A stretch of 64,000 nt of DNA, taken from positions 109,468 to 173,467 of the forward strand of contig CAVPJX010000002.1 in NCBI GenBank assembly GCA_963705545.1, in the 5' to 3' direction. This document shows, in pieces, positions 1 through 60,254 of the stretch; the first letter of the stretch is position 1; the number at the start of each line of letters is the position of its first letter. A model generated the notes under the pieces. The model was not told the DNA's origin, made no database searches, and worked only from the letters and a program-made list of their open reading frames with translations. The DNA comes from an uncultured Actinomycetes bacterium. GTDB taxonomy: Bacteria; Actinomycetota; UBA4738; HRBIN12. A program made the translations under genes and the position numbers.

Positions 1-560
1 AGGGCAGCGGCGATCGGCCCGGTCGGGATCCGCTCGACGTAGTACGCGATCGAGACGTGCGGCGCGAAGCCGCCCTCCTCCGCGGGGAGCGACCGGTCGG
101 CCCGTGCCGGCTCGAGCAGGGAGACGCCGTCCAGCAGCAGGTCGCGGATCGCGGCCAACGCCTCCCATGGCTCGACCCAAAGGACCGCCGCCTCCGCGAA
201 CGATCCGGCCCCCGCGATGCTGACCTCCACGGGCGAGCAGCCCGCGAGCGCTGCACGCGCCTCGAGCGCGACCACCGAGGCTGCGTTCGGCGGGAGCTCG
301 TCCAGGAATCCCACCGACTGGATCGTCAGATGACGGCGCCGCGCGTCGAGCGGCGGCACGCCGAGCCCGGCGATCGCGTGCAACACACGCTCGGCGGCCG
401 CGGTCACGGACGCCTGTTGCCCCACCTCCGCCACGAAGATCAGGTAGCGCCGATCCGGGGCCCAGGCGGCGGGCCAGTCGGTCGCGATCGCCGGCACGAC
501 GTGCGCGAGCGCTCCGAACCGGCGGCGTTGGAGCTCGGTGAAGTCCGAGGCGCCGCTCAC
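1..560 (-). CDS. RNA 2',3'-cyclic phosphodiesterase / 2'-5' RNA ligase family (2H phosphoesterase), partial; the 3' end runs off the window edge
   Basis: My reverse-strand translation gives ...RRHLTIQSVGFL... and ...FAPHVSIAYYVERIPTGPIAAAL, i.e. two H-x-T/S-x motifs typical of the 2H family. GTG start at 560 overlaps the bcp stop (GTGA). Not in the ORF track because it has a non-ATG start and is truncated. Confidence 0.45.
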   Translation of the reverse strand, partial: MSGASDFTELQRRRFGALAHVVPAIATDWPAAWAPDRRYLIFVAEVGQQASVTAAAERVLHAIAGLGVPPLDARRRHLTIQSVGFLDELPPNAASVVALEARAALAGCSPVEVSIAGAGSFAEAAVLWVEPWEALAAIRDLLLDGVSLLEPARADRSLPAEEGGFAPHVSIAYYVERIPTGPIAAA

Positions 561-3088: not shown

Positions 3089-3187
3089 GCCGTTCAGTCT
3101 CTCGCGTCCGCGCGCGAGGGTGTGCGTCGCGGACCCGGGCGCGGCCGAGACCTCCGCCCGGCTTCAGCCCGGGGGGCAGGCGTGCCG

Positions 3188-3868
3188 ATGAGGAAGCAGG
3201 CCATGGAAGAGGACATCAGGATCCTGATCGTCGACGAGAGCCCGGGCCTCGCCGAGGCGCTGCAGCTCGAGCTCCCACGGCGGGTCCAGGTCGCCGTCCT
3301 CGGCCCCGTCCCCGACGCCCTCGCGGCGCTCGACGCGATGGATCGCGAGGTCGTCGATCTGGTCCTGGTGGACCTCGATCGCGATGAGGGGGATGGGCTC
3401 GAGACGGTGCGGTTGATCCGCGAGGGCAACGGCGCCGCGCGCGTGCTCTGCGTGTCCGAGGCGCGGGCCCCCGAGGCGGCCGCCGGCGCGCTCGCGGCGG
3501 GCGCCGTGGGCGTGATCCGCCCGGACTCCGGCGGCACGGCCACGCTGTCCGCCCTGCGGCGGGCCCTCGCGGGCGAGCTCGTGCTGCCGGCCGTGCATCT
3601 CCCCAACCTCGTCGACCGTCTCCGGACGAACCGGGATCTGAGCGACGGCGAGCGACTGTCGTCGCTCACGGGTCGCGAGCGCGAGATCCTCCGCCTGCTC
3701 GCCGACGGGGGCGCGACCACCGAGATCGCCTCGGCGCTCGGCATCAGCCCGATGACCGTGCAGAGCCACGTGAAGAACATCCTGTCGAAGCTCGCCGTCC
3801 ATTCGAAGGTCGAGGCCGTGACGCTCGCGTGGAGGACGGGCCTCGCCACGGTCACGCGCTCCGGATGA
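3188..3868 (+). CDS. NarL/LuxR-family response regulator (receiver + LuxR HTH)
   Basis: 226 aa. Receiver-like N-terminus (ILIVDES...DLVLVDLDRDEGDGLE) and LuxR C-terminus (LTGREREILRLLADGGATTEIASALGISPMTVQSHVKNILSKL). The start comes from residue counting within ORF 2291..3868; an alternative ATG is at 3203. Confidence 0.8.
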   Translation: MRKQAMEEDIRILIVDESPGLAEALQLELPRRVQVAVLGPVPDALAALDAMDREVVDLVLVDLDRDEGDGLETVRLIREGNGAARVLCVSEARAPEAAAGALAAGAVGVIRPDSGGTATLSALRRALAGELVLPAVHLPNLVDRLRTNRDLSDGERLSSLTGREREILRLLADGGATTEIASALGISPMTVQSHVKNILSKLAVHSKVEAVTLAWRTGLATVTRSG

Positions 3869-3894: not shown

Positions 3895-4596
3895 ATGGGG
3901 GGGAAGGTGGACGGCGGACAGGCCGGGGGGCGGGTCGTCGTGGCCGATGCCCATCCCGCGGTCCGCGGGGCCGTCCGGCTCTCCTGCGCGGCGATCCCGG
4001 GTCTGGACGTCGTCGACGAGACCTCGAGCGGCGAGGAGCTCCTGGCCTCGTGCCGCCGCCTGCATCCGGACGCCGTCGTGCTCGACCTCTCGCTCCCCGA
4101 TCGAGAGGGATTCGATCTGATCCGTGAGGTCCGCCACGACGAGCTCGCCCGCGTGATCGTGATCCTGTCCGATCGCACGGACGGCGCGACCGTCTTGGAG
4201 GCGCTTCGCCTGGGTGTGGACGGCTACCTCGTGAAGGCGACGGGTCTGACCGACGTCGGGCGCTCCGTCGCTCGGACGCTCGCGGGTGAGCGCGTCGTCT
4301 CTCCGGAGCTCGAGCCGGTCACCGTGCAGGAGCTCGGGCGCCGCGTCCGGCAGGCTCGAGAGGGGACCGAGGTCCGGGCCACGCTGACCGCGCGGGAGCA
4401 CGAGATCTTGCTGCTGCTCAGCGAGGGCTCCACGATCCAGCAGGTCGCGCATCGCCTGGGGATCTCGCCGAAGACGGTCGAAACCCATGTCGCGAAGCTC
4501 TACCGCAAGCTCGACGTTCGGACGCGCGTCCAGGCCGTGGCTCGGGCGGCCTCGCTGGGGCTGATCGAGCTCAATCGCGGACCCGACCGCTCCTGA
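3895..4596 (+). CDS. NarL/LuxR-family response regulator
   Basis: 233 aa. Receiver (VVVADAHPAVR...VVLDLSLPDREGFD) plus LuxR HTH (LTAREHEILLLLSEGSTIQQVAHRLGISPKTVETHVAKLYRKL). Confidence 0.8.
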   Translation: MGGKVDGGQAGGRVVVADAHPAVRGAVRLSCAAIPGLDVVDETSSGEELLASCRRLHPDAVVLDLSLPDREGFDLIREVRHDELARVIVILSDRTDGATVLEALRLGVDGYLVKATGLTDVGRSVARTLAGERVVSPELEPVTVQELGRRVRQAREGTEVRATLTAREHEILLLLSEGSTIQQVAHRLGISPKTVETHVAKLYRKLDVRTRVQAVARAASLGLIELNRGPDRS

Positions 4597-4753
4597 GCCC
4601 TCGAGTGACTCGCCGATCGTCCGATCGGTCCTGAACCGTCGTTCGATCCGTGTCCCCCGGTTCCCCTCAGTTCCTCGTACGCATCCGCCGATACACGACC
4701 CAGAGGAGGCAGCTGCCGTCTCGGGCGTCGGGCCCGGAGCCGGGGCGTCCGAG

Positions 4754-5470
4754 ATGACGAGACGGAGCACGACGGATGACGCGCCCCCTCCCCCGGTGGT
4801 CCGCCGGCGGCTCGGCGTCGTCGTCGTCGACCCGTTGCCCGTGGTGCGGGCCGGTCTCGGGCTCTTGATCGAGGACCGGCCGGACCTCGAGGTGCTCGCC
4901 GAGGCGGGGACCGCGGAGGAGGGCTTGGAGGCGATCGGGCGGATCCGCCGGAGCCGCGTGATCGTGCTCGTGGGGCTCGGGCTCGCCGGCGACCACGATT
5001 CCTACTGGTTGATCCGTACCCTGCGCCAGCGGTACCCGGCGCACGCGATCCTCGGGTGCGGTGCCAACGCCGATCCCACCGCGATCTCGCGTGCGCTGTT
5101 CGTCGGCGCGGACGGCTTCGTCGACAAGAACATCGACCCCGTCGAGTTCCTGCAGGCGCTCCGCGCGGCCGCGGCGGGCGACATGGTGCTGGCCACGCCC
5201 GCCTCGTCGTCCTCGCTCGGTGCGATCGCCGAGGGGATCGAGCGCCGGCGAGAGGTCGAGGTGAAGCTGACGGAGCGCGAGCGGGAGGTCCTCGTCGTGG
5301 CGGCCGAGGGTCTGACCGCTCGGCAGATCGCCACGCGCCTCGGCGTGCGCGAGCGAACCGTCACGACGCACCTCGCGCGGATCTACGGCAAGCTCGGGGT
5401 GGGCAACCGCCTCGCCGCGATCCGTCTCGCGACGCGCTCGGGTCTGGTGTCCGTCGGCTCATCGGAATGA
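4754..5470 (+). CDS. NarL/LuxR-family regulator with a degenerate (pseudo-)receiver domain
   Basis: 238 aa. The LuxR HTH is at the C-terminus (LTEREREVLVVAAEGLTARQIATRLGVRERTVTTHLARIYGKL). The receiver-like region reads VIVLVGLGLAGDHD where the phospho-acceptor Asp is expected. Confidence 0.75.
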   Translation: MTRRSTTDDAPPPPVVRRRLGVVVVDPLPVVRAGLGLLIEDRPDLEVLAEAGTAEEGLEAIGRIRRSRVIVLVGLGLAGDHDSYWLIRTLRQRYPAHAILGCGANADPTAISRALFVGADGFVDKNIDPVEFLQALRAAAAGDMVLATPASSSSLGAIAEGIERRREVEVKLTEREREVLVVAAEGLTARQIATRLGVRERTVTTHLARIYGKLGVGNRLAAIRLATRSGLVSVGSSE

Positions 5471-5591
5471 AGCACGTTGGCGCGCGGATCGCGACCGTCG
5501 CACGCTCCCGTGACGTTACGTAGAAGTACGTACCGCGATTCGGGATCACTAGGGATTCTCGGCTGACGTCCGCACTCCTACCGTGTCCCCT

Positions 5592-5608
5592 GGCGGCTGT
5601 GAGCCGCC
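5592..5608 (+). promoter_or_regulatory. short hairpin in the flp 5' leader (GGCGGCT-gtg-AGCCGCC)
   Basis: 7-bp perfect stem with a 3-nt loop, about 45 nt upstream of the flp ATG. Seen directly. Confidence 0.3.
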
Positions 5609-5652
5609 CGGGCAACGCCCGAATGGCTTCCAGCCTTCGGAGAGGAGGTGAC

Positions 5653-5853
5653 ATGTTCCTTCGTCTCTACACCGGCGCACAGACCTGGTGGGGCGACTTC
5701 CGTCTTCGCGCTCGCGAGGAGGGTGGCGCCACGGCGGTTGAGTACGCGCTGATGGTGGCCCTGATCGCCGCCGTGATCATCGGTGCCGTGACGATCCTCG
5801 GTCAGAACGCTGAGGACAAGTTCACGGACGTCGGTACCGCGGTGGGCAGCTGA
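5653..5853 (+). CDS. flp: Flp family type IVb pilin (prepilin)
   Basis: 66 aa. MFLRLYTGAQTWWGDFRLRAREEGG/ATAVEYALMVALIAAVIIGAV carries the canonical Flp G/xTAVEY processing motif followed by a hydrophobic helix. The Shine-Dalgarno sequence GGAGAGGAGGTG precedes the ATG. This is an internal start of ORF 5599..5853. Confidence 0.8.
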   Translation: MFLRLYTGAQTWWGDFRLRAREEGGATAVEYALMVALIAAVIIGAVTILGQNAEDKFTDVGTAVGS

Positions 5854-5884
5854 TCCATCTGCCTTTCCATCGTACGAGCGGCCT

Positions 5885-5933
5885 TCGCCGGCCGCTCCCT
5901 CCCCCGACGAAGCCGGGGGAGCGAGGGGCCGGC
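5885..5933 (+). terminator. GC-rich stem-loop (about 19-21 bp stem, 7-nt loop) immediately after the flp stop
   Basis: cgccggccgctccctcccccg-acgaagc-cgggggagcgaggggccggcg. I paired it by hand at 19/21 positions. There is no U-tract, as is usual for high-GC Actinobacteria. Confidence 0.4.
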
Positions 5934-6047
5934 GAACCACCCCCCAACATCGAACCAGAGATGGCCTCCTCCCGTCGGCGGATCGCTGCTCCAGCCACGC
6001 GGCTCTCGCGCCGATAGGAGTCAGGAGTTCCGAAAGGAGACGGAAAC

Positions 6048-6848
6048 ATGAGATCACGAGGTCTGGTGGTCGCCGTTGCCCTGGTCCTGGCAGCCCTGGC
6101 AGCGGGGGCGGTGATCCTCTACACGAACGGGGTCAAGGAAGAGGCGGTCAGCGGCGGCGAACTCACCACGGTGATCGTCGCCACGCAGGAGATCCCGGCC
6201 AACACCCCGCTCACCCCGTTGCTCGAGGGCGGAGGCTTCAAGGAGCTCGCCGTCCCGAACGACGCGGTCGTCGACGGGGCCGTGACCAGCCTGGACGAGC
6301 TGAAGGGCCGGACCACGACGTCGCCGCTGCTCGCGAACGAGCAGATCTCGGTGGCGGATCTCGACACGGGCGAGGCCCCCGCGGGCGGCGCGCTCGGGAT
6401 CTCGAAGGGTCACGTCGCGCTCACGTTCAAGCTGAACGCGCCCCAGGGCGGGTTCGGGTACATCCAGCGCGGCGACAACGTCTCGATCTACGCGACGTAC
6501 AACGGCACCTCGATCATCCCCGGATCCATCGAGGACCTGATCGCCGGCAACTCCGCCGACACGACCGCGAAGCGGCAGGAGCTGCCGGACTTCACGGCCA
6601 CGGTCATCCCCACGGTCCGCGTGCTGGCGGTCGAGAACCCCGGCGTGGACGAGGAGGGCAACCCCACGGGTGAGAACGTCACCTTGACGCTCGACCTCAC
6701 GCCCGAGGACGCCCAGGCCTTGGTCTTCGCGTCCGAGAACGCGCTCGTGTGGGTCGGCCTCCTGCCTCCGGGCGAGGACGGTCAGCAGCCTCCCGCGACG
6801 CAGGTGCCGGTCGAGCTGCTGCTCGGGAAGCGGGGAGCCCTGGCATGA
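6048..6848 (+). CDS. cpaB: Flp pilus assembly protein CpaB/RcpC (SAF domain)
   Basis: 266 aa. N-terminal TM helix (LVVAVALVLAALAAGAVIL), then ...TVIVATQEIPANTPL... typical of CpaB. Good RBS (GGAAAGGAGACGG). Confidence 0.8.
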   Translation: MRSRGLVVAVALVLAALAAGAVILYTNGVKEEAVSGGELTTVIVATQEIPANTPLTPLLEGGGFKELAVPNDAVVDGAVTSLDELKGRTTTSPLLANEQISVADLDTGEAPAGGALGISKGHVALTFKLNAPQGGFGYIQRGDNVSIYATYNGTSIIPGSIEDLIAGNSADTTAKRQELPDFTATVIPTVRVLAVENPGVDEEGNPTGENVTLTLDLTPEDAQALVFASENALVWVGLLPPGEDGQQPPATQVPVELLLGKRGALA

Positions 6849-8068
6849 CCGATGCCAGCGTCGTCGCCGTCGGGACGCCGCAGTCCTTCCGCCAGCAGAT
6901 CGCCCGGGCCCTCGAGGTCGAGATGGACGAGATCGGCTGGGTGCAGTCGGCCACGGCCGCGGAGGAGCTCCTGATCAACGCCTACAACCCGGTCGACGTG
7001 ATGGTGCTGTCGCCCGAGGTCAAGGAACAGGACGCGCTCGGCCTGGCGGAGTTCATGGGCCGCCAGGCCCCGGGCACGGCGATCGTGCTCGTCCGCGACC
7101 ACACGTGGAACGGCTTGCTTCCGGCCGCGATGCGCGCGGGGATCCGCGACGTCGTGGACATGACCCAGGGCAACGACGAGCTCCGCGAGGCCGTGGAGCG
7201 CGCCGTCCTGTGGGCCACGAACCTGCGCAGCGCCGCGGGTCCGCAGCGCGACGGCGGCCCCGCCCAGCGCGGGCACGTGATCTCGGTCTTCTCGTCGAAG
7301 GGCGGTTCGGGCAAGACCTTCCTCGTCACGAACCTGGCCGCCTCGATCGCCGACATCACCGGGCAGGACACGGCGGTCGTCGACCTCGACACCGACATGG
7401 GCGACGTCTTCACCTACTGGGGCCGTGAGCCGATCGCGCGGCTCGAGGACCTGATGGGCATCGGCGAGGGCGGCGAGCACGACAAGATCCGCGAGGTCGG
7501 GGTCCAGTTCGATCAGCACGTCTGGGGGTACGGCACGCCGCCCGATCCCTCGACCGAGCCGCCCGCCGGTGAGGCCGTCGGCAAGTTCCTGCGGACGCTC
7601 CGAGCTGACTTCCCGTGGGTCGTCGTGGACGCCTCGGTGGACTATTCGGACTCCGCGCTCGTCTGTTTCGACCTGTCGGACGCGATCTGCCTGGTGACCC
7701 CCCTCGACGTCGTGGGGGTGAAGCACCTGTCCAAGGCGCTCGACACGCTGCTGACGATCGGGTTGCCACGCGACCGGTTCCGCGTCGTGCTGAACCGAGC
7801 CGACAGCAAGGTCGGACTCGACTCCGGCGACGTCGAGCGCGTGATGAAGGTCGAGGTGGACGTGATGATCCCCTCGAGCCGCCTGGTGCCGACGGCGCTG
7901 AACAAGGGGCGCCCCGTCGTGCTCGACGAGCCCGGCTCGGACGTCTCGACCGCGGTGCGCCACCTGGCGACGAAGCTCACGCATCAGTTCAGCGGCGCCG
8001 AAGCGGGCGCCGCCGATCCGAACGGCAACGGCAAGGGCAAGAAGCGGAAGCTGTTCTCGAAGGCGTAA
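6845..8068 (+). CDS. cpaE: pilus assembly ATPase CpaE/TadZ (receiver-like N-domain + ParA/MinD-type ATPase)
   Basis: The ATG at 6845 overlaps the cpaB stop (ATGA). Walker A reads VFSSKGGSGKTFLVTNLA. The N-terminal region is a pseudo-receiver, as in TadZ. Confidence 0.8.
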   Translation: MTDASVVAVGTPQSFRQQIARALEVEMDEIGWVQSATAAEELLINAYNPVDVMVLSPEVKEQDALGLAEFMGRQAPGTAIVLVRDHTWNGLLPAAMRAGIRDVVDMTQGNDELREAVERAVLWATNLRSAAGPQRDGGPAQRGHVISVFSSKGGSGKTFLVTNLAASIADITGQDTAVVDLDTDMGDVFTYWGREPIARLEDLMGIGEGGEHDKIREVGVQFDQHVWGYGTPPDPSTEPPAGEAVGKFLRTLRADFPWVVVDASVDYSDSALVCFDLSDAICLVTPLDVVGVKHLSKALDTLLTIGLPRDRFRVVLNRADSKVGLDSGDVERVMKVEVDVMIPSSRLVPTALNKGRPVVLDEPGSDVSTAVRHLATKLTHQFSGAEAGAADPNGNGKGKKRKLFSKA

Positions 8069-8083
8069 GGGAGAGGATCCACG

Positions 8084-9403
8084 ATGTCCCTGGCAGACAG
8101 GCTGGCGAAGGCGCAACAGCGGGACCGCATCTCGGAGGTTCGAATCCGCGTCCAGGAGCGTTTGGTCGAGGTCCTCGGCCCGCGGCTCTACGACTCGACC
8201 CTCTCCGACGACGAGCTCGAAGGCCTGGTCCACCAGCGCCTGCGCGAGCTCCTCGACGAGGAGGAGGGTCCGCTCTCGGCGCAGGAGAAGCTCCTGATCG
8301 TCCGGCAGATCGGCGACAGCGTCCTGGGTCTCGGGCCGCTCGAGCCGTTCGTCCGGGACCCGGACGTCACCGAGATCATGGTGAACAGCTGGGACACGAT
8401 CTACGTCGAGCGCGGCGGCAAGCTGTACTGGACCGGCACGAAGTTCCACGACGACCAGCAGCTCCGCCGCACGATCGACAAGATCGTGGGGAAGGTCGGC
8501 CGCCGTGTCGACGAGGCCAGCCCCTACGTGGACGCGCGGTTGCCGGACGGTTCCCGTGTGAACGCGATCATCCCGCCGCTCGCGCTGGACGGTCCCTCGC
8601 TCACGATCCGGAAGTTCGCCGCCGACCCGTACGGCGCCGACGACCTGATCGAGTTCGGGACCTTCACGTCCTCGGTGGCGCAGTTCCTCGAGGCCTGTGT
8701 CCGTGGCCGCATCAACATCATGGTCTCCGGAGGGACGGGCGCCGGGAAGACCTCGACCCTGAACGTCCTGTCGTCGTTCATCCCGGACGACGAGCGGATC
8801 GTCACGATCGAGGACGCGGCCGAGCTCCGGTTGCAGCAGCCGCACGTGGTGCGGCTGGAGGGACGCCCGCCGAACATCGAGGGCAAGGGCGCGGTCACGA
8901 TCCGCGACCTGGTCCGCAACTCCCTGCGGATGCGGCCCGACCGGATCGTGGTCGGGGAGGTCCGTGGCGCCGAGGCCCTGGACATGCTCCAGGCGATGAA
9001 CACCGGCCACGACGGCTCGATCTCGACGATCCACTCGAACTCGCCGCGCGACTCGCTGTCGCGCCTGGAGACGATCACGCTGATGGCGGGCATGGACCTG
9101 TCGCCGCGGTCGATCCGCGAGCAGATCGCGTCGGCGATCCAGCTGATCGTGCACCAGCAGCGGCTGAAGGACGGCACCCGCCGCTTCACCCACGTGACCG
9201 AGATCGCGGGGATGGAGGGCGAGGTGATCACCCTGCAGGACCTGTTCCTGTTCGACTTCAGCTCCGGCGTCGATGACGAAGGGAAGTTCCGCGGTCGCCT
9301 GAAGTCGACCGGGCTGCGCCCGAAGTTCATGGAGCGCCTCGAGGAGCACGGGGTGCGTGTCGACCCGGAGATCTTCGCGCTGGAGACGCGGGGGAACCTG
9401 TGA
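8084..9403 (+). CDS. cpaF: Tad/Flp pilus secretion ATPase CpaF/TadA
   Basis: 439 aa. Walker A is VSGGTGAGKTSTLN. The type II/IV secretion ATPase signature includes ...RPDRIVVGEVRGAEALDMLQAMNTGHDGSISTIHSN. Confidence 0.9.
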   Translation: MSLADRLAKAQQRDRISEVRIRVQERLVEVLGPRLYDSTLSDDELEGLVHQRLRELLDEEEGPLSAQEKLLIVRQIGDSVLGLGPLEPFVRDPDVTEIMVNSWDTIYVERGGKLYWTGTKFHDDQQLRRTIDKIVGKVGRRVDEASPYVDARLPDGSRVNAIIPPLALDGPSLTIRKFAADPYGADDLIEFGTFTSSVAQFLEACVRGRINIMVSGGTGAGKTSTLNVLSSFIPDDERIVTIEDAAELRLQQPHVVRLEGRPPNIEGKGAVTIRDLVRNSLRMRPDRIVVGEVRGAEALDMLQAMNTGHDGSISTIHSNSPRDSLSRLETITLMAGMDLSPRSIREQIASAIQLIVHQQRLKDGTRRFTHVTEIAGMEGEVITLQDLFLFDFSSGVDDEGKFRGRLKSTGLRPKFMERLEEHGVRVDPEIFALETRGNL

Positions 9404-10413
9404 TCGGGCTCGGCAACTTCTGGGGCACCGACGCAGCGCTCTACCTGGCGGTCGCCCTGGTCGCGCTGGCGGCCTTCCTGATGGGGTGGATGCTGCTGGG
9501 CACGGCGGCCCGCCGCAAGAAGGACCGCGAGACAGCCCAGCGCCTCGCGTCGATCAGCGGTCGCGGCGGCGGACAGCACGTCCCGCAGATGCCGATGGAC
9601 AAGGGTGCGGGGGGATGGATCCCCGCGAGCGTGACCCACTTCGGCCGGCGGTTCGCCGACAAGCGTGGGTTCTCCGAACGGCTCGACGCCGAGCTCGAGG
9701 CCGCGAGCGTCAGCCTCCGGTCGGGGGAGTTCGTCGTGGTCACCGTCGGCGCGGTGTTCGCCGGCGCGATCGTCGCGCTCGCGGTGTTCGGCAACCCGCT
9801 CTTCGCGCTCGTCGGCGGCGTGATCGGCGGACTCGCGCCGACCGCGGCCCTTCGGGTCGCGCTCAAGCGACGGGCCGAGAAGCTGCGTGAGCAGCTCCCC
9901 GACGTCCTGACGATCATGGCAAGCTCGCTCCGGGCCGGTCACAGCTTCCTCCAGGCCCTCGACACCGTCGCGCGCGAGATCGCGCAGCCGGCCGCGACCG
10001 AGTTCCAGCGGGTGGTCGCCGAGATCCGGCTGGGCCGCAGTGCCGAGGATGCGCTCGAGGCGCTCGCGGAGCGCGTCGGGAGCTCTGACTTCAAGTGGGC
10101 CGTGCTGGCGGTCAACATCCAGCGGGAGGTCGGCGGGAACCTGGCCGAGATCCTCGACAACGTGTCGGACACGCTGCGCGAGCGCGCGATGATGCGCCGT
10201 CAGGTCCGCGTCCTCACGTCCGAGGGACGTCTGTCGGCGTGGGTGCTGACCCTGCTGCCGATCGGTATCGCCTTCTACCTGTTCGCGATGAGCCCCGACT
10301 ACATCGGGCTGCTCTTCAGCACGACGATCGGGTACGTCATGTTGGGCGGCGCCCTGATCCTGTTGGTCGCGGGGGTCCTGTGGATGAGGAAGATCGTGAA
10401 CATCGATGTCTGA
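9400..10413 (+). CDS. tadB: Flp pilus assembly membrane protein TadB (T2SS-F domain)
   Basis: 337 aa, polytopic. The GTG start overlaps the cpaF stop (GTGA). T2SSF-like region: ...LPDVLTIMASSLRAGHSFLQAL... Confidence 0.85.
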   Translation: MIGLGNFWGTDAALYLAVALVALAAFLMGWMLLGTAARRKKDRETAQRLASISGRGGGQHVPQMPMDKGAGGWIPASVTHFGRRFADKRGFSERLDAELEAASVSLRSGEFVVVTVGAVFAGAIVALAVFGNPLFALVGGVIGGLAPTAALRVALKRRAEKLREQLPDVLTIMASSLRAGHSFLQALDTVAREIAQPAATEFQRVVAEIRLGRSAEDALEALAERVGSSDFKWAVLAVNIQREVGGNLAEILDNVSDTLRERAMMRRQVRVLTSEGRLSAWVLTLLPIGIAFYLFAMSPDYIGLLFSTTIGYVMLGGALILLVAGVLWMRKIVNIDV

Positions 10414-11350
10414 GCTCTGGCTGATCGTCGCCGTCGCGTCCGTCTTCGGGGCCGCCCTGTTGATCGGGCTCGCCATGGACCAATCGACCTCGCAGCGCAA
10501 GCGAACCGTCCGCCTGCTCGAGTCGCAGGTGAGCGGGTCTACGACGACCGACTCGACGAACCTGCGGGACCGGGAGATGCAGCGCGGCTTCGGCGAGCGC
10601 GTCCTCATCCCCGTGGTCGGAGGCGCCACCCGCATCGCCCGTCGCGTGACGCCCCTCGATGCGCGCGACCGGATCGCCAAGAAGCTGTTGCTCGCCGGGA
10701 GCCCGCCGGGCTGGGACGCCGAGCGCATCCTCGCGTTCAAGATCATCGGGTGCGTCGGGGCGTTCATCGCCGGGCTCTTCGTCAGCAAGCTGATCGGCCT
10801 GACCGGCTTCACCGGGATCATCGTGATCGGCCTGCTCACGGTCGCGGGGTTCCTGCTCCCCGACTCGGCCCTCTCGCGCAAGGTCGAGGAGCGCCAGCAC
10901 GAGATCCTCGGCACCCTGTCGGACACGCTCGACCTGCTCACGATCAGCGTCGAGGCGGGGCTGTCGCTGAACGCCGCGATCGCGCAGGTCGTCCAGAACG
11001 TTCCCGGCACGCTCTCGTCGGAGTTCGCGCGGATGCTCCAGGAGATCCAGCTGGGCGTGCCGCGGTCCGAGGCGTTCCGTCATCTGGCGGAGCGGACCGA
11101 CGTCGAGGAACTGAACGCCTTCGCGCTGGCCATGATCCAAGCGGACGTCTTCGGCGTCTCGATCGCGAGCGTCCTTCGGACCCAGGCCCAGCAGCTGCGG
11201 ATCAAGCGCCGACAGCGGGCAGAGGCCCGGGCGCAGCAGACGCCGGTCAAGATCGTGTTCCCGCTGATCCTGTGCATCCTGCCGGCCCTGTTCGTCGTGA
11301 TCATCGGGCCCGGCGTGATCCGGATCATGGATCAGATCCTGAGCACCTAG
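10406..11350 (+). CDS. tadC: Flp pilus assembly membrane protein TadC (T2SS-F domain)
   Basis: 314 aa. The start overlaps the tadB stop. ...LSDTLDLLTISVEAGLSLNAAIAQVVQN... is T2SSF-like. Confidence 0.85.
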   Translation: MSELWLIVAVASVFGAALLIGLAMDQSTSQRKRTVRLLESQVSGSTTTDSTNLRDREMQRGFGERVLIPVVGGATRIARRVTPLDARDRIAKKLLLAGSPPGWDAERILAFKIIGCVGAFIAGLFVSKLIGLTGFTGIIVIGLLTVAGFLLPDSALSRKVEERQHEILGTLSDTLDLLTISVEAGLSLNAAIAQVVQNVPGTLSSEFARMLQEIQLGVPRSEAFRHLAERTDVEELNAFALAMIQADVFGVSIASVLRTQAQQLRIKRRQRAEARAQQTPVKIVFPLILCILPALFVVIIGPGVIRIMDQILST

Positions 11351-11440
11351 ACCCGACCGGACCGTCCGGACCCGACCCGTCCCAGGGACCTACTCGGGTC
11401 GGCGCTCAAGGTGGGTTCCCGCCGTGCCGACACCTGAGGC

Positions 11441-11593
11441 ATGCGGACCGAGCGCACGCTCGAGAGGATCCTCGGAGCCTTCGCCGAGGCCGTCGAGGCC
11501 GGCGAGTTCGAGGCGGCCGAGGGTTGGGTCGCCGTCGCCGACTGGGTTCGGACCCGGTCCACGGCTCCCGCGTTCGCTCCGGCCTCGCGTTGA
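11441..11593 (+). CDS. small acidic hypothetical ORF (about 50 aa) downstream of tadC
   Basis: ATG...TGA ORF read by eye (MRTERTLERILGAFAEAVEAGEFEAAEGWVAVADWVRTRSTAPAFAPASR). It is not in the supplied track (too short). Coordinates are approximate and no family was recognised. Confidence 0.2.
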   Translation: MRTERTLERILGAFAEAVEAGEFEAAEGWVAVADWVRTRSTAPAFAPASR

Positions 11594-11797
11594 CCTCGGG
11601 TCCTCCCGGCTCGACCGCGCTCGGATCGCCAGGTCCCTCCCGGCTCGACCGCGTCTGACCTGCCCAGATCACCCGAGGCCGTCGGCGACGGACGTAGGTC
11701 TTCGGTCGCATTGCGGCGTCCCCCTCTCATGCCCTACACTCGCCCCGTCCGGGTAGGCTGTTCGTGCTACCCGGAAGGTCGAGAGGAAGGTGTGCTG

Positions 11798-12040
11798 ATG
11801 AAGCGGATCGGTTTCGCAGTAGCCACCGCGATCTCGTTCGTGCTGTGCGTGGCCGCCCCCGCGTTCGCCCAGTCCGTGGAGCCGAACGGGCCGGACGTCG
11901 AGGGGACGGGCGGTTCGGCTGGGGGCACGGCCTTCACCGGCGCCAACGTGTCGAGGAGCCTGCTCCTGCTGGCGGTCTTGATCGTCATCGGGACGCTCGC
12001 CCTGTACGTCGGCCGTCGCCGGTCGCACGTCGCCAGCTGA
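11798..12040 (+). CDS. small secreted protein with a signal peptide and a C-terminal TM anchor plus basic tail
   Basis: 80 aa. MKRIGFAVATAISFVLCVAAPAFA/QS... has a Gly-rich middle and ends ...SLLLLAVLIVIGTLALYVGRRRSHVAS. The RBS GAGGAAGGTG precedes the ATG. This is an internal start of ORF 11711..12040. Confidence 0.45.
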   Translation: MKRIGFAVATAISFVLCVAAPAFAQSVEPNGPDVEGTGGSAGGTAFTGANVSRSLLLLAVLIVIGTLALYVGRRRSHVAS

Positions 12041-12133
12041 CGCGACACGGACCAGATCGTGCTTCCGACCCCCCATCGGGGGGTCGGTTCGCGTCCGGGT
12101 CCGTTCCGTTCCGTTCGGCAGGGTAACCGTCGT

Positions 12134-14119
12134 TCAGAATGGGCGCGTCAGGTCCCGCCAGAGGCGCACCGGCAGCGACGGCGCGAACGAGACCTCCAGG
12201 TCGAGGTTCCCGTTCGGCACACCTTCGTATACGACCTTCCCGCCCTCGACCCTGAGCCCGGCGCTCAGCGCCGTCGCGTGCATCCCGTCGGGGAGCGTGA
12301 TCGCCACCCGGAGCTCGGCGGGGTCGATCGTGACCTGGTCGACGAAGCTCAGCCGGTAGGTGCCGCCGCTCGAGGTGCCGTCCCACGCCCGGATCAGGAA
12401 CAGGCTCGCCTCGACGACCGACGTGTCGCCGGCGGCCGTGTGGACGTAGTCGTCGAAGTAGGGGTGCCCGTCCTGCTCGAACCGGTCCAGGTCGACCGGG
12501 CGGCCGTCGCGCGTGCCCGCGCGCAGCACCGCGCTCTCGTCGGTGTACAGGTGGACGACGGCTAGGTTGTCGCCCGGGTTCTCCGTGTAGCCGGGGTACG
12601 GACCGATCACGTACTTCGGGAACCCTGAGGTGGGCGCGTCGTTCTCGATCGAGGCCGACAACGTCGCGCGTGCGGTCCCGCCCTCGTCCAGCGCGACGTC
12701 GTAGGCGATCATCCGGCGTTGGAAGAAGTCGAGCTTCGTCCCCGAGCCGCTGTTCGTGATCAACGCGATCGCGTCGGTGCCGTCGGGTCGGAACGCGCCG
12801 CCGGCCCCGGTGAGCGCGAGCCCCTCTTGCATGTCGGGATCGGTGGTCCAGACCTTGACGTGGCCGTCGTCGAACGCGCGCAGGAGAGCGCGCTGTCGCA
12901 TCAGGTCGTCGCCCGAGGTCGCGAGGAACCGGGCCAGCACGTCGGCGGCCACCTCGCCGAGGACGGCCTTGCGCTCCTCGTTCGTGTCGAACAGGGCGTA
13001 GGCTTCGTTCGAGACGAAGCGGACGATCCGGTCGGGCGCGACCCGCACGCCGGCGCTGCGGACCTCCACCGGTCCCGTCACGCGCATCAGGGCCTGCAGC
13101 GCGAACGGGTCCGCGACGATCACGCCGTCCAGGGGTTCGCCGGTGGCTTCCTCGTACGACATCGCGATCGTCCCGGCGGCGAGCGGGAAGTCGGGCGTCA
13201 TGTTGGTGTTCAGCCAGAAGTGGACCGCCTCCCAGTAGAAGCCGGCGTTGTCGATGTACTCCTGCGACGGGGAGCGCCAAGTGCTCTCGTTCAACTCGGG
13301 CAGGCTCTGCACCGGGCGGAAGTCCGAGAACGAAAGGGCCCCGTCATCGATCGTGAGGATCGCGTACGCCCCGATCAGCCCACCCGTCCCGCGCTCCTCG
13401 GCCGGGTTCGCGGCCCCGAAGAAGTACCGCTTCGGGCCGTCCTCGCCCAGGAACGCCGGGAGTCCGCGCAGGATCGCGGCGCCAGCCTCCAGCTGGCGGG
13501 CGAGCGGCTCGATCGCCTCCAGGGCCTCAGCGCGGGCCGACGCGACCGGGCCGAGCACCAGGGTGGACGCGCTCCGTTCGAGCCCAGCGAGCGCCTGGTC
13601 GGCGAGCTCCGAGGCCGATCCGACGGCGGTCGCCAGCCCGACCAGGGGCTCGAGCGGGATCGCCCCGTCTCGCGGGGCGAGGCCACCGAGGCCGCCCGGG
13701 ACCTCGCCGAGCGCCGACGCGATCGTGGCGGCCGCGTCCGCGGTTCGGACGCCCGCGTCCGAGATCGCGCGCACGGTATCGGGCGTCCGTCCGAGCACCG
13801 GGATCGCGGCTGCGAGCGCGTACCAGGGGGTCCGGGCGTCGCCGGCCGCGGCTCGGAACTCACGGCCCGCATCCTGGAACGCCGTGGCCGCCCCGTCGAC
13901 GTCGCCGTCGCGCAGCGCGGTCTTGCCCGTCTCGAGCGCGTCGCGCCCGGACTGGAGGTGGCGGCGGGCCGCGAGGGAGCCGATCCCGACCAGCACGAGG
14001 TCCAGCACGAGGACCGTCACGAGCGCCCCGAGGATCAGCCAGACGACGCGACGACGGGGACGACGCCGAGGCTCGATCGGCGGGGCGTCCGGACGCGGTT
14101 CGGTCGTGGTGGTGTCCAT
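12134..14119 (-). CDS. membrane-anchored large extracytoplasmic protein (DUF4012-like, tentative)
   Basis: Start chosen at MDTTTTEP (residue 64 of ORF 12134..14308). It has a single N-terminal TM helix (VVWLILGALVTVLVLDLVLVGI) followed by about 600 aa. The family assignment is from memory only. Confidence 0.55.
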   Translation of the reverse strand: MDTTTTEPRPDAPPIEPRRRPRRRVVWLILGALVTVLVLDLVLVGIGSLAARRHLQSGRDALETGKTALRDGDVDGAATAFQDAGREFRAAAGDARTPWYALAAAIPVLGRTPDTVRAISDAGVRTADAAATIASALGEVPGGLGGLAPRDGAIPLEPLVGLATAVGSASELADQALAGLERSASTLVLGPVASARAEALEAIEPLARQLEAGAAILRGLPAFLGEDGPKRYFFGAANPAEERGTGGLIGAYAILTIDDGALSFSDFRPVQSLPELNESTWRSPSQEYIDNAGFYWEAVHFWLNTNMTPDFPLAAGTIAMSYEEATGEPLDGVIVADPFALQALMRVTGPVEVRSAGVRVAPDRIVRFVSNEAYALFDTNEERKAVLGEVAADVLARFLATSGDDLMRQRALLRAFDDGHVKVWTTDPDMQEGLALTGAGGAFRPDGTDAIALITNSGSGTKLDFFQRRMIAYDVALDEGGTARATLSASIENDAPTSGFPKYVIGPYPGYTENPGDNLAVVHLYTDESAVLRAGTRDGRPVDLDRFEQDGHPYFDDYVHTAAGDTSVVEASLFLIRAWDGTSSGGTYRLSFVDQVTIDPAELRVAITLPDGMHATALSAGLRVEGGKVVYEGVPNGNLDLEVSFAPSLPVRLWRDLTRPF

Positions 14120-17564: not shown

Positions 17565-18554
17565 TCAGGCCGTCATGTCGGGGAGCGCCTGCAGCTCGGC
17601 GGCGACCTCGTCCGGGTCGAACAGCGGGCTCCAACGGTCGAGCACCGTTCCGTCCGCGCCGATCAGGAAGAGCCACGGCTCGGTCAGGTCCTTCGTCTGG
17701 TCGGGCCAGAGCCAGTCCGCGGCGGCCCGGTTGATCACGCTGTTCTGATAGTCGCGCCAGATCTCGACGTGGATGTAGACCGCCTTGTCGGGGTACGCCT
17801 CGGCGAGCTCGGCCAGCCCGTCGACCGAGGGGCCGCAGAACTGACTCGTGCAGTACAGCGGCGTCGCGAACAGCACGAGCGCGGCCCGGCGCTGCGCGAT
17901 CGCTCGGGCGATCGTCCATCGGTGGAGCTCCGGGTCGGGAACGGGCGCTCCGTCCTGGGCACGGGAGTCGATCGCCTGCGGCGGCGCGTCCGTGGAGTCC
18001 ATCGTCAGGTTCTTCGTGCGCAGGGCCTCATCGCCCGGTACCGGCAACGTCGGCTCAGCGGCGACCGTGAACGCGGTCTGGAGCTGCTGCGGACCCGAGC
18101 CCGGGATCTCGGCCGTCACCTCGACGGTCCACACGCCCGCCCGGTCGAAGGTGACGTCGTCGGCCTCGTAGACGCCGCGGACGTCGGCCGGATCCGAGAG
18201 GGCCGGGTTGCCCGAGCCGACGGGGGTGCCGGGAGCCGGCACGTACGACGCCGTCGAGACCGGTCCGGCGACCGGCTGACCCGAGCCGTCCTCCCCGAGG
18301 TAGGAGAACGCGAACTGAACCTGGCCGAAGGTGAGGAGCTGCGTGCCGTCCTGGGTGGTCGCGAACACCCCCGCCTGGACACGTTGCGGGGCGCCGGCGA
18401 ACAGGTCGGTCGTCGCGACCTCGGCCGCCAAGGTCGACGAGGTGCTCGCGGTGGGGACCGGCGCGGACCCCGGATCGTCCCCCCCGCTGCAAGCGGCGAG
18501 GAGCGAGAGGCCGACGACGAACACGAGGCCGGTACGGTGGGATCGGAAGGGCAT
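17565..18554 (-). CDS. lipoprotein with a C-terminal thioredoxin-like / thiol-disulfide oxidoreductase-like domain (tentative)
   Basis: Start at MPFRSHRTGLVFVVGLSLLAAC/SGG (lipobox). C-terminus reads ...LVLFATPLYCTSQFCGP... Confidence 0.55.
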   Translation of the reverse strand: MPFRSHRTGLVFVVGLSLLAACSGGDDPGSAPVPTASTSSTLAAEVATTDLFAGAPQRVQAGVFATTQDGTQLLTFGQVQFAFSYLGEDGSGQPVAGPVSTASYVPAPGTPVGSGNPALSDPADVRGVYEADDVTFDRAGVWTVEVTAEIPGSGPQQLQTAFTVAAEPTLPVPGDEALRTKNLTMDSTDAPPQAIDSRAQDGAPVPDPELHRWTIARAIAQRRAALVLFATPLYCTSQFCGPSVDGLAELAEAYPDKAVYIHVEIWRDYQNSVINRAAADWLWPDQTKDLTEPWLFLIGADGTVLDRWSPLFDPDEVAAELQALPDMTA

Positions 18555-57217: not shown

Positions 57218-60103
57218 CTAGGGGTGGGCGTGGTCCACGTCGCCGCCCGGGAGGAACACCCGGAACGACGCCCCGCCGCCCTCGCGCTCCTCGACCCACG
57301 CCCGTCCGCCGTGAAGCTCGGCGAACCGGCGGACCAGCGTGAGCCCCACGCCCACGCCCGGGGAGTGCTCCCGGGCGCCGGCCCCTTGCTGGAAGGGCTC
57401 GAAGATCCGCTCACGGAGCTCGGCCGGGACGCCGGGCCCGTCGTCCTCGACGACGATCGTCACGCCGTCATCGCCACCGCGGACCGACAACCACACGTGG
57501 GCGCCAGTCGGTGTGTGGCGTGCGGTGTTCGCGAGCAGGTTCTCGACGATCCGCTCGACCTTGGCGGCGTCGATCGCCGCCACGACCGGCTCCAGCTCGA
57601 CGGTCAGCCGCTCCGGCTCGATCGGCTGACTCTCGTCCAGCACGCGCCGAACCAACGCGCCGACGTCGGTCGCCTCGAGCTTCGGCGTGATGATCCCCCG
57701 CGCCAGCCGGTCCATGTCCAGCAGGTTGCGGACGAGCCGCTCGAGCCGCCGCGCGTTCTCGGCGATCCGGTGCGCCAGGTCGCGCGCGTCGCCATCCGCG
57801 AGGCGGACGTCGGGCCGCTCGAGGGTGACCGCGAGGCCGAGGATCGCGGCGAGCGGGGTCCGCAGATCGTGGGAGACGGCCTGCAGGAACGTGTTCTTCA
57901 TCTCGTCGAGGGCGCGGAGGCGGTTCGTGGCCTCGCGCTCCACCTCGAGGGCCTGGGCGAGGCGCTCCTCCGCGCGCTTGCGCTCGGTGATGTCGAGCAG
58001 GAACCCCTGCCAGTACGGGTCGCGTCCCTCCGGCTGCACGAGCGTCGCCTCGTCCTGTACCCAGACGATGTCCCCGCCCTTGCGGATCATCCGGTACTCC
58101 ATCGAGAAGCGTCCGCCGCCGCTCTGCCGGTTGCTCTGCGCGTCGGCGGCGAGCACCCGTTCCCGGTCCTCGGGGTGCAGGATCTTCCGCCAGAGCCCCG
58201 GATCGGCCTCGATCTCCTCCGTCGTGTAGCCGATCAGGTCGGTGTTGCCCGGCGCGATGTAGACCGTGTTCGAGAGCGACGGGTCGCGCGGATCGATCTC
58301 CTGGGTGTAGAAGATCGCCTGGTTCTGCTCCACGATCGTGCGGAACTTGAGCTCCGCCTCCCGGAGCTGCTCCTCGGCGCTCTTGCGTTCCGTGATGTCC
58401 AACAGGAAGCCCTGCCAGAACCCGCCCTCCGGGGTCTCGAGGAACGTCGCCTCGTCGTGGACCCAGACCCATCGGCCGTCCTTCGCGAGGAACCGGTAGT
58501 CCATGGAGTAGGGCTGCTTCGAGTGGTTCGATCGCTGGTCCACCTCCCACACGTCGTCGCGATCATCGGGGTGCACGTGGTCGATCCAGAAGTCGGTCGT
58601 CCAGGTCCACTCGTCCACGCTCCAACCGAAGACCGCCTGGACCTGCGGGCTCAGGTAGAAGCGCTCCGGGTCGGCGTCGGGCGACTCGACGTAGACGACC
58701 GCGGGGATGTGCTCGACGAGCGCCCGGTAGCGCCGCTCGGCTTCGCGCAGGCCCAGCTCGGCCTCCATCCGGCGCGTGATGTCGAGCATCACGCCTTGCC
58801 ACAGCACCGGCTCCCCGTCCACGCCGCGGATCAAGATGGATTCGTCGTGGAACCACACGACACGCCCGTCGGCGGCGATCACCCGGTAGTCCTGCCGATA
58901 GGGCTCCTCCGAGAGCGCCGTCCGCTCGCTCTCGGCCAGGACCGCCTCGCGGTCGTCGGGGTGGAGGATCTCGAGCCAGAAGTCTCCCTGTTCGATCCAC
59001 CGCGCGAGGGGGTATCCGAGGATCGTCTCGACCTGGGGGCTCAGGTAGGTGAAGGCCGAGGCGACGTCGTAGGCGTCCGTGGACGGATCCTCCTGATACA
59101 CGATCGCAGGCGTCTGCTCCACGAGGCGCCGGAAGCGCTCCTCCGCGACCCGGAGCCCGCCCTCCGCCTCGTGACGCTCGGTGACGTCGGTGAGGAAGCC
59201 GAGCCAGTAGATCGTGCGCCCCCACCGGTCCTCGATCGGGGCGGAGACGTCGTGGACCCAGACGATCCGGCCGTCGGCGGCGATCATCCGGTACTCCTCC
59301 TCGAACCGGTCCGGTGCGCGCGCGGCCGCGATCACGCGGTCGAGGTCGTCGGGGTGGACGCGGGAGAACCAGAAGTCCGGGTCGTCGAAGTAGCGCTCGC
59401 GCGAGAACCCGAGGACCTCCTCCATCTGGGGACTGAGGAACTCGAGGCGGGCGCCGTCCTCCTCGACGATGTCCGTGTACGTCACCGCGGGGATGTGCTC
59501 CACGAACGCGCGGTAGCGTGCCTCGGTCGCCCGAGCGTGCTCGTCGAGCCCCTGGCGCGTGACGGCCGCGCCGAGCACGGTCGCCGCGGCCCGGAGCGCC
59601 TCGAGTTCCGCGCCCGACCAATCGCGCCGCTCGGCACAGTCGTCGAACCCGATCACGCCCCACCACTCGCCGTCGGTCTGGACCGGCATGCAGACCATCG
59701 AGACGATGTCCTGGGCTTCCAGGGCCGGACGCTCCGCGTCCGGCAACTCCGCGACCGCTCCCGCGATCGAGCCGCCGGCACGCATCACGGTCGGCCACCG
59801 GCCGAAGCCGAACTCCGCCCAGGGTGTGCGCTCGAGGATGGGGTTGCCGAACTGGGACCGGACGCCGGGGGCGCACCACTCCGCCATCTGGGCCGCGCAA
59901 TCGCGGTCTCGGTCGTCGACCACGTTGCGGATCAGGTAGGCCCGCGAGACCTCGGCCGCCTCGCCGAGCCGCGCCAGGACCTCGTCGATCGCGTCGCGCC
60001 AATCCGGCGAGAGGAGCAGCCGCTCGGCGGCGAAGGCGATCGCCTCCAGGATCGCGTCGCGGCGGAGCGAGACCCCACCAGCAGCGTGCGCCGTCTCCAC
60101 CAT
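57218..60103 (-). CDS. multi-sensor hybrid-type histidine kinase (GAF + about 5 PAS + HisKA + HATPase_c)
   Basis: ORF 57218..60187. Start chosen at MVETAHAAGG. Repeated PAS blocks (...YRMIAADGRIVWVHD..., ...YRVIAADGRVVWFHD..., ...YRFLAKDGRWVWVHD..., ...YRMIRKGGDIVWVQD...), then HisKA (LQAVSHDLRTPLAAI) and an HATPase domain. Confidence 0.75.
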   Translation of the reverse strand: MVETAHAAGGVSLRRDAILEAIAFAAERLLLSPDWRDAIDEVLARLGEAAEVSRAYLIRNVVDDRDRDCAAQMAEWCAPGVRSQFGNPILERTPWAEFGFGRWPTVMRAGGSIAGAVAELPDAERPALEAQDIVSMVCMPVQTDGEWWGVIGFDDCAERRDWSGAELEALRAAATVLGAAVTRQGLDEHARATEARYRAFVEHIPAVTYTDIVEEDGARLEFLSPQMEEVLGFSRERYFDDPDFWFSRVHPDDLDRVIAAARAPDRFEEEYRMIAADGRIVWVHDVSAPIEDRWGRTIYWLGFLTDVTERHEAEGGLRVAEERFRRLVEQTPAIVYQEDPSTDAYDVASAFTYLSPQVETILGYPLARWIEQGDFWLEILHPDDREAVLAESERTALSEEPYRQDYRVIAADGRVVWFHDESILIRGVDGEPVLWQGVMLDITRRMEAELGLREAERRYRALVEHIPAVVYVESPDADPERFYLSPQVQAVFGWSVDEWTWTTDFWIDHVHPDDRDDVWEVDQRSNHSKQPYSMDYRFLAKDGRWVWVHDEATFLETPEGGFWQGFLLDITERKSAEEQLREAELKFRTIVEQNQAIFYTQEIDPRDPSLSNTVYIAPGNTDLIGYTTEEIEADPGLWRKILHPEDRERVLAADAQSNRQSGGGRFSMEYRMIRKGGDIVWVQDEATLVQPEGRDPYWQGFLLDITERKRAEERLAQALEVEREATNRLRALDEMKNTFLQAVSHDLRTPLAAILGLAVTLERPDVRLADGDARDLAHRIAENARRLERLVRNLLDMDRLARGIITPKLEATDVGALVRRVLDESQPIEPERLTVELEPVVAAIDAAKVERIVENLLANTARHTPTGAHVWLSVRGGDDGVTIVVEDDGPGVPAELRERIFEPFQQGAGAREHSPGVGVGLTLVRRFAELHGGRAWVEEREGGGASFRVFLPGGDVDHAHP

Positions 60104-60254
60104 CGGTTCCGCGTTGTCTCCTCGCTCGTCCGGACGCGCCGGAGGAAGAGGCCCGTGCCGGGTCCCCTGGGGAGTTATCGGCGCCACCCGGCGGAGGATG
60201 AGCCTGGGGGTCTCGCGGGCGGGTTCCTCGTCGGCCAGGCTCGCCGAGCGCGGG

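Follow-up and report, generated by a model that had tools for sequence, protein, structure and literature searches.

A small secreted protein with a sortase-type sorting signal beside a Tad pilus operon in uncultured Actinomycetota: probably a wall-anchored peptide of a separate DUF4012 cassette

Introduction

Does a small gene that stands directly behind the last gene of a pilus operon also belong to the pilus? The question is raised by a stretch of 64,000 nucleotides (nt) from an uncultured Actinomycetes bacterium (contig CAVPJX010000002.1 of assembly GCA_963705545.1, positions 109,468 to 173,467 of the forward strand; the whole stretch is called the window below). Two small open reading frames (ORFs), here named p50 and p80 after the length of their products in amino acids (aa), lie in it between tadC of a Tad/Flp pilus operon and a convergent gene for a protein with a DUF4012 domain. 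An earlier reading of the window, made from its letters without database searches (the sequence-only reading), held both ORFs to be unannotatable and took p80, a secreted protein with a sortase-like C-terminus, for the end of the pilus operon. We find that p80 does not belong to the Tad pilus but, together with the convergent DUF4012 gene, to a separate insertion/deletion cassette. In our reading, to which we give a probability of about 0.55, p80 is the precursor of a tiny secreted peptide with a sortase-type wall-sorting signal, and p50 is a separate, real protein.

Results

The comparison set consisted of 80 loci around relatives of TadC (47-93% identity), onto which each gene was mapped. 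All these related loci come from metagenome-assembled genomes of uncultured Actinomycetota. The two ORFs announced by the sequence-only reading, one of 50 aa, rich in E and A and running from ATG to TGA, and one of 80 aa with a strong ribosome-binding site, are both present (Table 1), and p80 has the Shine-Dalgarno sequence GAGAGGAAGG at 11781-11790, 7 nt before its ATG. In this window of 71% guanine-plus-cytosine (GC) content both show the codon-position pattern of real genes, with a GC content of 0.87-0.97 at the third position (GC3) and the lowest value at the second, and both have homologues in related loci. Look-ups of the exact protein sequences led to the same neighbourhoods, and other gene callers had predicted both small ORFs as well. 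Nor is p80 beyond annotation: PGAP and JGI give several of its relatives the name 'LPXTG cell wall anchor domain-containing protein'.

The signal-peptide-like N-terminus and the Gly-rich core described earlier were found in p80, which contains 10 Gly, and so was the C-terminal hydrophobic helix with its basic residues. The C-terminus consists of LLLLAVLIVIGTLALYVG followed by RRRSHVAS, so that a hydrophobic helix is followed by a positive tail at the extreme end. A single-sequence search gave 51 homologue clusters, and 168 proteins matched a profile of the C-terminal signal. The family members are 76-89 aa long, with a signal peptide ending in A-x-A and then 15-25 variable residues rich in S, T, P and G; by inspection, the n-h-c layout of a Sec signal peptide and the A-x-A site are present in all 51 clusters and 43 loci. 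GGTAFTG is invariant in every member examined, including those of the 43 loci, and is followed by a short polar spacer. The helix has one invariant Gly, RRR is invariant too, and the mature segment varies in both length and sequence. Between p80 and its counterpart in L001, the closest related locus, we counted 15 synonymous and 11 nonsynonymous codon differences. A DUF4012 gene is convergent to p80 in all 43 p80-carrying loci, with a gap of 35-157 bp where both ends are readable. One copy of p80 (L008, 7309-7551) has its N-terminal half out of frame and an intact TAFTG-helix-RRR part, and is either a frameshifted pseudogene or the result of an assembly error.

That no LPXTG precedes the helix, as stated in the sequence-only reading, is literally correct. 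In substance it does not hold, because the invariant TAFTG lies at the position of the motif, six residues before the hydrophobic helix, and p80 passes the Pfam model PF00746 (Gram_pos_anchor) with 21.7 against a gathering score of 20. Three NCBIfam models matched the C-terminal stretch below their cut-offs, namely NF058583 LAXTG_small_WW with 28.5 (cut-off 65), NF058582 Microco_LAVTG with 15.0 (cut-off 27) and TIGR01167 with 13.2 (cut-off 15.9). Among the relatives, P0236 (18.4) and the copy of locus L044 (16.0) exceed the cut-off of TIGR01167 and the L044 copy also that of Microco_LAVTG (29.8), and on LAXTG_small_WW relatives reach 17-23 bits. The matches to these hidden Markov models begin at residue 47 of p80 (PF00746, TIGR01167) or at residue 45 (Microco_LAVTG), which, judged by the start positions only, would place T47-G48 on the TG of the motif. 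In comparison to LAXTG, the A, T and G of TAFTG agree and the first residue is an invariant Thr instead of Leu. The earlier proposal that p80 is secreted and has a tripartite C-terminal signal of the sortase type is supported by the Pfam threshold and by relatives above curated cut-offs. Going by its sequence, p80 is best filed as a small protein with a predicted sortase signal, in which the variant motif TAFTG replaces the LAXTG usual for class E sortases of actinobacteria.

Several findings weigh against this reading. The score of p80 itself falls short of TIGR01167 and far short of LAXTG_small_WW. In the sole structure of a class E sortase subsite S4 has a non-polar character and fits Leu (PMC5148588), which speaks against a motif that starts with Thr; the invariant Thr at this position would mean either that the pocket of the sortase is adapted or that no sortase takes part. 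A search with a TLxTC pattern gave no credible ORF for a sortase, either within the 64 kb of the window or across the 80 related loci, which amount to about 0.9 Mb. When the TAFTG-signal profile was run against 5.8 billion proteins, the top 120 matches were all 44-81 aa long, and no larger protein with a TAFTG signal was found among these 120, in the window or in the loci. The window and the related loci also contain no other protein with an xxxTG C-terminal signal. All the loci are from one lineage, so the conserved adjacency of p80 and DUF4012 is partly inheritance. Finally, no p80-like ORF was seen beside the distant DUF4012 genes of Streptomyces NBC_00467 and of the two Rhodococcus plasmid loci scanned, which makes the pairing lineage-specific; for Lachnospira, the locus was read from its annotation.

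Some of these findings feed the main rival, in which p80 would be a small single-pass (type I) membrane protein that, once its signal peptide is removed, stays anchored by its helix, with GGTAFTG contacting the extracytoplasmic DUF4012 protein and no processing by a sortase. Such a protein would be expected to keep its conservation where p80 has it, that is in the juxtamembrane motif, the glycine of the transmembrane (TM) helix and RRR, and not in a passenger domain. It would also suit the tight pairing with a single-pass membrane protein, the Thr in place of Leu, and a neighbourhood with no sortase and no other substrate bearing the TAFTG signal. However, models of sortase signals reach their curated thresholds (Pfam for p80, TIGR01167 and Microco_LAVTG for relatives), and x-A-x-T-G placed 3-6 residues before a helix with a basic cluster is exactly the spacing of class E signals. 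The conservation pattern fits both readings, and we regard an uncleaved p80 as possible, at well short of even odds.

The invariable partner of p80 was modelled from 63 homologues with AlphaFold (AF2), which gave a predicted local distance difference test score (pLDDT) of 86.5 and a predicted template modelling score of 0.84. In the model an Arg-rich tail precedes the N-terminal TM helix, which implies that everything after this helix is extracellular. Next come a long bundle of helices and an alpha/beta domain corresponding to the Pfam DUF4012 region (227-374), and a beta-sandwich forms the C-terminal part. A Foldseek search of the PDB with the model returned only weak partial matches of the beta-sandwich (ribophorin I/Ost1 and the N-domains of M1 aminopeptidases). 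The structures listed for an LCP-like resemblance of the model are 3pe5, 3okz, TagU (6uf6) and Cps2A (2xxp), and further MsrR/LcpA (9gn3, 6uex), 3owq and LcpA of Actinomyces oris (5v8c). At the level of sequence no link between DUF4012 and LCP was detected, either by a profile search of the PDB or by a Pfam scan of the 63 members. As it is invisible to sequence profiles, the LCP-like fold of the extracytoplasmic domain is taken here as a structural lead from a predicted model, and not as family membership.

Three residues of DUF4012 (E241, R243 and D331) are invariant in this lineage, Streptomyces, Rhodococcus and Lachnospira, as one would expect of an enzyme. The DUF4012 genes of Streptomyces and of Rhodococcus plasmids belong to polysaccharide clusters, and two of the four such loci examined have a sugar transferase immediately before DUF4012; in Bifidobacterium DUF4012 has likewise been described in such a setting (PMC5412050; also PMC6744442). 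On the plasmid of Streptomyces sp. NBC_01320 (L090) the DUF4012 gene is followed by a 54-aa ORF (5511-5675) with a lipoprotein-like N-terminus (…LLLASC…), which lacks a p80-type signal and is unrelated to p80, and then by a glutaminyl-peptide cyclotransferase gene (5669-6346).

The tripartite form of the p80 C-terminus is common to many sorting systems that do not use sortases, and the TAFTG-helix-RRR element might be read by another enzyme, either a rhombosortase-like activity of the rhomboid encoded 4.6 kb away or DUF4012 itself as a new sorting enzyme. The GG doublet before TAFTG, the weak sub-threshold matches to other C-terminal sorting models (VPDSG-CTERM, GVDTG) and the fact that DUF4012 is the sole strictly co-inherited gene, with its invariant E, R and D residues, are in line with this. 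Yet the best-scoring models are all models of sortase signals, the GG stands 11 residues before the helix, unlike in GlyGly-CTERM, and no fold of a protease or transpeptidase is apparent in the DUF4012 model, which resembles LCP phosphotransferases and beta-sandwich domains. Rhombosortase was rejected as a candidate: the nearby rhomboid, a backbone gene of the region that is also present in loci lacking p80, scores 50.2 where TIGR03902 requires 84, and the GG is not directly before the helix. We therefore hold a non-sortase enzyme to be very unlikely.

The relation to the pilus was assessed from gene order. The backbone in related loci runs tadC, pheA, a PQQ-propeller gene and rhomboid, and the loci that could be sorted fall into three classes by what lies at the tadC-pheA junction. 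In the first (20 loci), pheA follows about 50 bp after tadC, and p50, p80 and DUF4012 are all absent. The second, represented by 16 loci plus the window, has p80 at 113-481 bp from tadC. In the third (27 loci) tadC and p80 are separated by 2-5.4 kb with a WbaP-like priming sugar transferase and sometimes more glycosyltransferases. Read from translations, such a transferase stands between tadC and the p50/p80/DUF4012 block in L012 (6989-8617) and L044 (7052-8611), and L044 has two further short ORFs (8634-9613) that look like a split Alg14/Alg13-type glycosyltransferase. Since p80 and DUF4012 always occur together, with or without the transferase and p50, they behave as one insertion/deletion cassette at the tadC-pheA junction. 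The sequence-only reading had placed p80 at the end of a pilus operon. As regards position alone, this holds for the window and for the 16 loci in which p80 adjoins tadC; most relatives either lack the block or have other genes between it and tadC, and p80 also has promoter-like boxes of its own. By co-occurrence, p80 is thus not a member of the tad operon.

Neither p80 nor p50 carries a Flp or TadE Pfam signature. A prepilin-peptidase motif is missing from p80, whose hydrophobic helix is at the C-terminal end. The window has a real Flp pilin elsewhere (Table 1). To our knowledge, Tad pili are not assembled by sortases. The idea that p80, as the last gene of the tad operon, serves the pilus as a minor subunit, tip protein or cell-surface anchor can point to its same-strand position directly downstream of tadC, shared by the window and the 16 loci, to a tad operon within 6 kb in every p80 locus sampled (a biased count, as the loci were found via tadC), and to a sigma-28-type promoter class that p50, though not p80, shares with the response regulator adjoining flp; but it is largely refuted by the synteny of a cassette that comes and goes, with 20 related tad operons running from tadC straight to pheA and 27 with glycosyltransferase genes in between, as well as by the separate promoter-like boxes and 5' untranslated region (UTR) of p80, the missing pilin signatures and the separate pilin, and we consider it scarcely tenable.

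The promoter-like boxes of p80 and p50 were found by cross-locus alignment; a strict scan for E. coli-type sigma-70 promoters and T-run terminators found nothing. The boxes of p80 (TTGC.. and TA..CT or TATCAT) keep their register in nearly all 43 loci, regardless of the upstream content. The stem-loop in the predicted 5' UTR is kept in the consensus fold of 11 relatives, where three pairs show compensatory changes. A known RNA element was not recognized, as an Rfam scan of 11300-12200 gave a single match at chance level (Scr1601, E 0.88). The region between the convergent genes (12041-12133) folds with -50 kcal/mol (z = -3.7 in comparison to shuffles), and the hairpin within it is likely a bidirectional terminator without a T-run. 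The direct repeat reported earlier between p50 and p80 is real, but it is longer than had been stated (18 nt), with 34 nt from start to start. It lies within a stretch of about 83 bp that is missing from the closest relative L001, whose TadC is 93% identical, and we treat it as a recent local duplication that is not conserved.

The second small gene, p50, encodes a conserved cytoplasmic protein separate from p80 that is often, but not always, part of the cassette. Homologues of 48-87 aa were found in 28 of the 44 p80-bearing sequences, including 27 other loci, and p50 is missing from 16 p80 loci. Once it occurs without p80: in L043 a p50 homologue (8424-8759, + strand) lies between tadC and pheA with neither p80 nor DUF4012, which shows that p50 is less tightly bound to the cassette than p80. 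The orientation of p50 is that of p80 in window-type loci and the reverse, with the two genes divergent, in transferase-type loci, so p50 moves with its own control region. A search of 1.84 billion representatives gave 29 matches, nearly all of them 42-87 aa long, with the core T-L-[DE]-[RK]-I-x2-A-F-A-E-A-V-x2-G-x-F-x2-A-E-G-W. In the AlphaFold (AF2) model (pLDDT 90, or 94-99 over the first 40 residues) helices 2-19 and 23-41 form a hairpin, and the tail is disordered. A fold search with it returned only generic helical hairpins, all with E > 0.8, and no Pfam or NCBIfam family was found for p50. In comparison to L001 there are 11 synonymous and 13 nonsynonymous codon changes, which corresponds to moderate selection. 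Two identities were rejected: a TPR repeat, because the three long matching proteins are repetitive and unrelated, and RsiG or FlgM, for which there was no motif or family match.

In the window, p50 has no Shine-Dalgarno sequence and is preceded by the element CTCAAG-N15-GCCGACAC. Across loci, a CTCAAG-like box is combined with (G)CCGATA(C/T), and in 27 of 29 loci, whichever way the gene points, the C of CGA stands exactly 13 nt before the start codon of p50. Published search patterns for actinobacterial WhiG/FliA promoters are T(A/C)AA-N16-GCCGA and CTCA-N16-17-GCCGA (PMC12871210, PMC8325347). The element at 11405-11433, within 200 bp of the start codon, matches both, and in many relatives the spacer is one nt longer than in the published query. 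The position of the box implies a leaderless transcript. Probably, then, p50 is transcribed on its own and leaderless from a promoter of the sigma-28/WhiG type, with a putative sigma factor and transcription start.

A box of the same class, CTCA-N17-GCCGATAC, is found at 4666-4694 (+), in the intergenic region before the LuxR-type response regulator gene (4754/4796-5470) adjoining flp. CTCA-N17-GCCGATA(C/G) was found upstream of this regulator in 10 of 12 readable related loci, which suggests that a WhiG/FliA-like sigma factor may control the regulator of the tad locus. With the same class of box upstream of both, p50, but not p80, may share a regulon with this regulator. For Rubrobacter, type IV pili are reported to be under the control of this sigma factor (PMC8325347, PMC12871210). 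A third intergenic match with a perfect -10 box, CTCA-N16-GCCGATAA, lies at 60175-60202 (-), 72 nt upstream of a gene for a 961-aa GAF/multi-PAS histidine kinase (57218-60103, -).

The coordinates of the features are collected in Table 1. Among the other genes of the window, the response regulator gene adjoining flp is the last of three successive LuxR/GerE-type genes directly upstream of flp (3182-3868, 3895-4596 and 4796-5470, +), with no cognate kinase between them. A 319-aa ORF with good coding statistics and no Pfam match (17565-18524, -) lies between rhomboid and ogt.

Table 1. Features around p80 and p50; positions count from the first letter of the window unless given as residues of p80.
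Feature	Position	Strand	Description
p80	11798-12040	+	80-aa precursor; GC3 0.93
p80 signal peptide	residues 1-24		MKR, 18 hydrophobic residues, AFA/QS
p80 variable segment	residues 25-43		rich in S, T, P and G
TAFTG codons	11927-11941	+	residues 44-48; at the L(P/A)xTG position; predicted scissile bond T47/G48, putative cleavage
p80 C-terminal part	TM helix residues about 55-72; RRR 73-75		spacer ANVSRS, then TM helix, RRR and a short tail
DUF4012 gene	12134-14119	-	661 aa; convergent to p80, invariable partner
p80 sigma-70-like promoter	11711-11740	+	-35 TTGCGG 11711-11716, 18-nt spacer, -10 TACACT 11735-11740; putative function
Stem-loop	11745-11778	+	inverted repeat I5, predicted p80 5' UTR, just before GAGAGGAAGG
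Hairpin	12065-12087		GC-rich, 10 bp, between p80 and DUF4012; putative terminator
p50	11441-11593	+	50 aa, ATG-TGA, cytoplasmic, acidic (7 E, 12 A, isoelectric point 4.9)
p50 sigma-28/WhiG-type promoter-like element	11405-11433	+	CTCA/TCAA 11405-11409, GCCGACAC 11426-11433; ends 7 nt before ATG
Exact direct repeat, 18 nt	11602-11619 and 11636-11653	+	CCTCCCGGCTCGACCGCG, family D1
Tad/Flp operon genes	6111-11350		CpaB/RcpC; TadZ-like ParA ATPase; TadA T2SSE ATPase; two T2SSF proteins, TadB and TadC (tadC stop at 11350)
Flp pilin	5650-5853		Pfam Flp_Fap, 2.4e-13

Discussion

Our view of p80 and its cassette is built on the tripartite architecture of p80, the invariance of the motif, the Pfam threshold, the behaviour of the cassette, the independent promoter-like boxes and the envelope topology of both proteins. 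Read in this way, the sequence makes p80 probably a tiny wall-anchored peptide. It would be exported by Sec and cut by signal peptidase after AFA, with the C-terminal helix and RRR keeping it in the membrane. A sortase would then cut between T47 and G48 and transfer a peptide of about 23 residues, rich in S, T, P and G, to peptidoglycan. The predicted mature wall-linked product of the window's p80 has 23 residues, QSVEPNGPDVEGTGGSAGGTAFT.

The LCP-like fold modelled for the extracytoplasmic domain of DUF4012 points to the assembly of cell-envelope glycopolymers as the most likely role of the pair. The further steps are speculative. The p80 peptide may serve as a sortase-anchored acceptor or partner, as in the LcpA/GspA/SrtA system of A. 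oris, and DUF4012 may move a lipid-linked glycan onto the S/T-rich peptide or the adjoining wall. A still more specific version, which we think unlikely, makes p80 a minimal 'stem peptide': DUF4012 would add a lipid-linked glycan, primed by the sugar transferase, to the S/T-rich segment of about 20 residues, and a sortase whose S4 pocket has adapted to Thr would fix the glycopeptide to peptidoglycan. If true, this would be a stripped-down, modular form of the LcpA/GspA/SrtA route of protein glycosylation, and it would give the widespread DUF4012 family its first function and fold class.

If our reading of p80 is correct, a family of about 80 aa in abundant uncultured soil Actinomycetota consists of sortase-type wall-anchored peptides with a TAFTG variant, and the motif predicts a sortase with altered specificity at P4, the first motif position. 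The strict pairing with p80 and the LCP-like model are a testable lead for DUF4012, which is common in Gram-positive polysaccharide loci. We consider this modelled fold, together with the proposed minimal peptide-anchored glycopolymer route, the most interesting of the leads. Further, the predicted sigma-28/WhiG regulon, which also seems to touch the tad-locus regulator, gains a conserved tiny protein in p50. The locus also calls for caution in inference from neighbourhoods, as the last gene after tadC resembled an operon member and was a separate insertion/deletion cassette.

The region before p50 can be compared with the WhiG/FliA promoters of Actinomycetota, with which it has in common the CTCA/TCAA box, the spacer of 16-17 nt and GCCGA(T/C)A. 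It differs by the additional spacer nucleotide in many relatives, and p50 has no signature of RsiG or FlgM.

For p80 the closest known proteins are the class E substrates with LAXTG, such as the Streptomyces chaplins ChpA-C and A. oris GspA. Like these, p80 comes from an actinobacterial host and begins with a signal peptide, and its x-A-x-T-G is followed within a few residues by a hydrophobic helix of about 20 residues and an Arg cluster. In contrast, it has an invariant Thr for Leu at P4 and practically no passenger domain, the mature part being about 23 variable residues, and its family consists only of proteins of about 80 aa. The proteins of NF058583 (LAXTG_small_WW) and NF058582 (Microco_LAVTG), the best NCBIfam matches of p80, are also very small, with little beyond a signal peptide and a sortase signal. 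One relative passes the Microco_LAVTG cut-off; p80 is not a member of NF058583, and its TAFTG motif and the coupling to DUF4012 are its own.

In A. oris the neighbouring genes lcpA and gspA encode an LCP enzyme and the sortase substrate that it glycosylates, GspA, which is anchored by SrtA (PMC6381275). The differences from our locus are that GspA is large and p80 is tiny, that DUF4012 is no LCP member by sequence and has additional helical and beta-sandwich domains, and that p80 and DUF4012 are convergent and not co-oriented, with glycosylation only proposed here. What the two have in common is that the gene of an extracytoplasmic protein with an LCP fold, here a modelled LCP-like one, adjoins the gene of a protein with an xAxTG signal, and in many relatives of our locus a transferase that would prime lipid-linked sugars is encoded next door.

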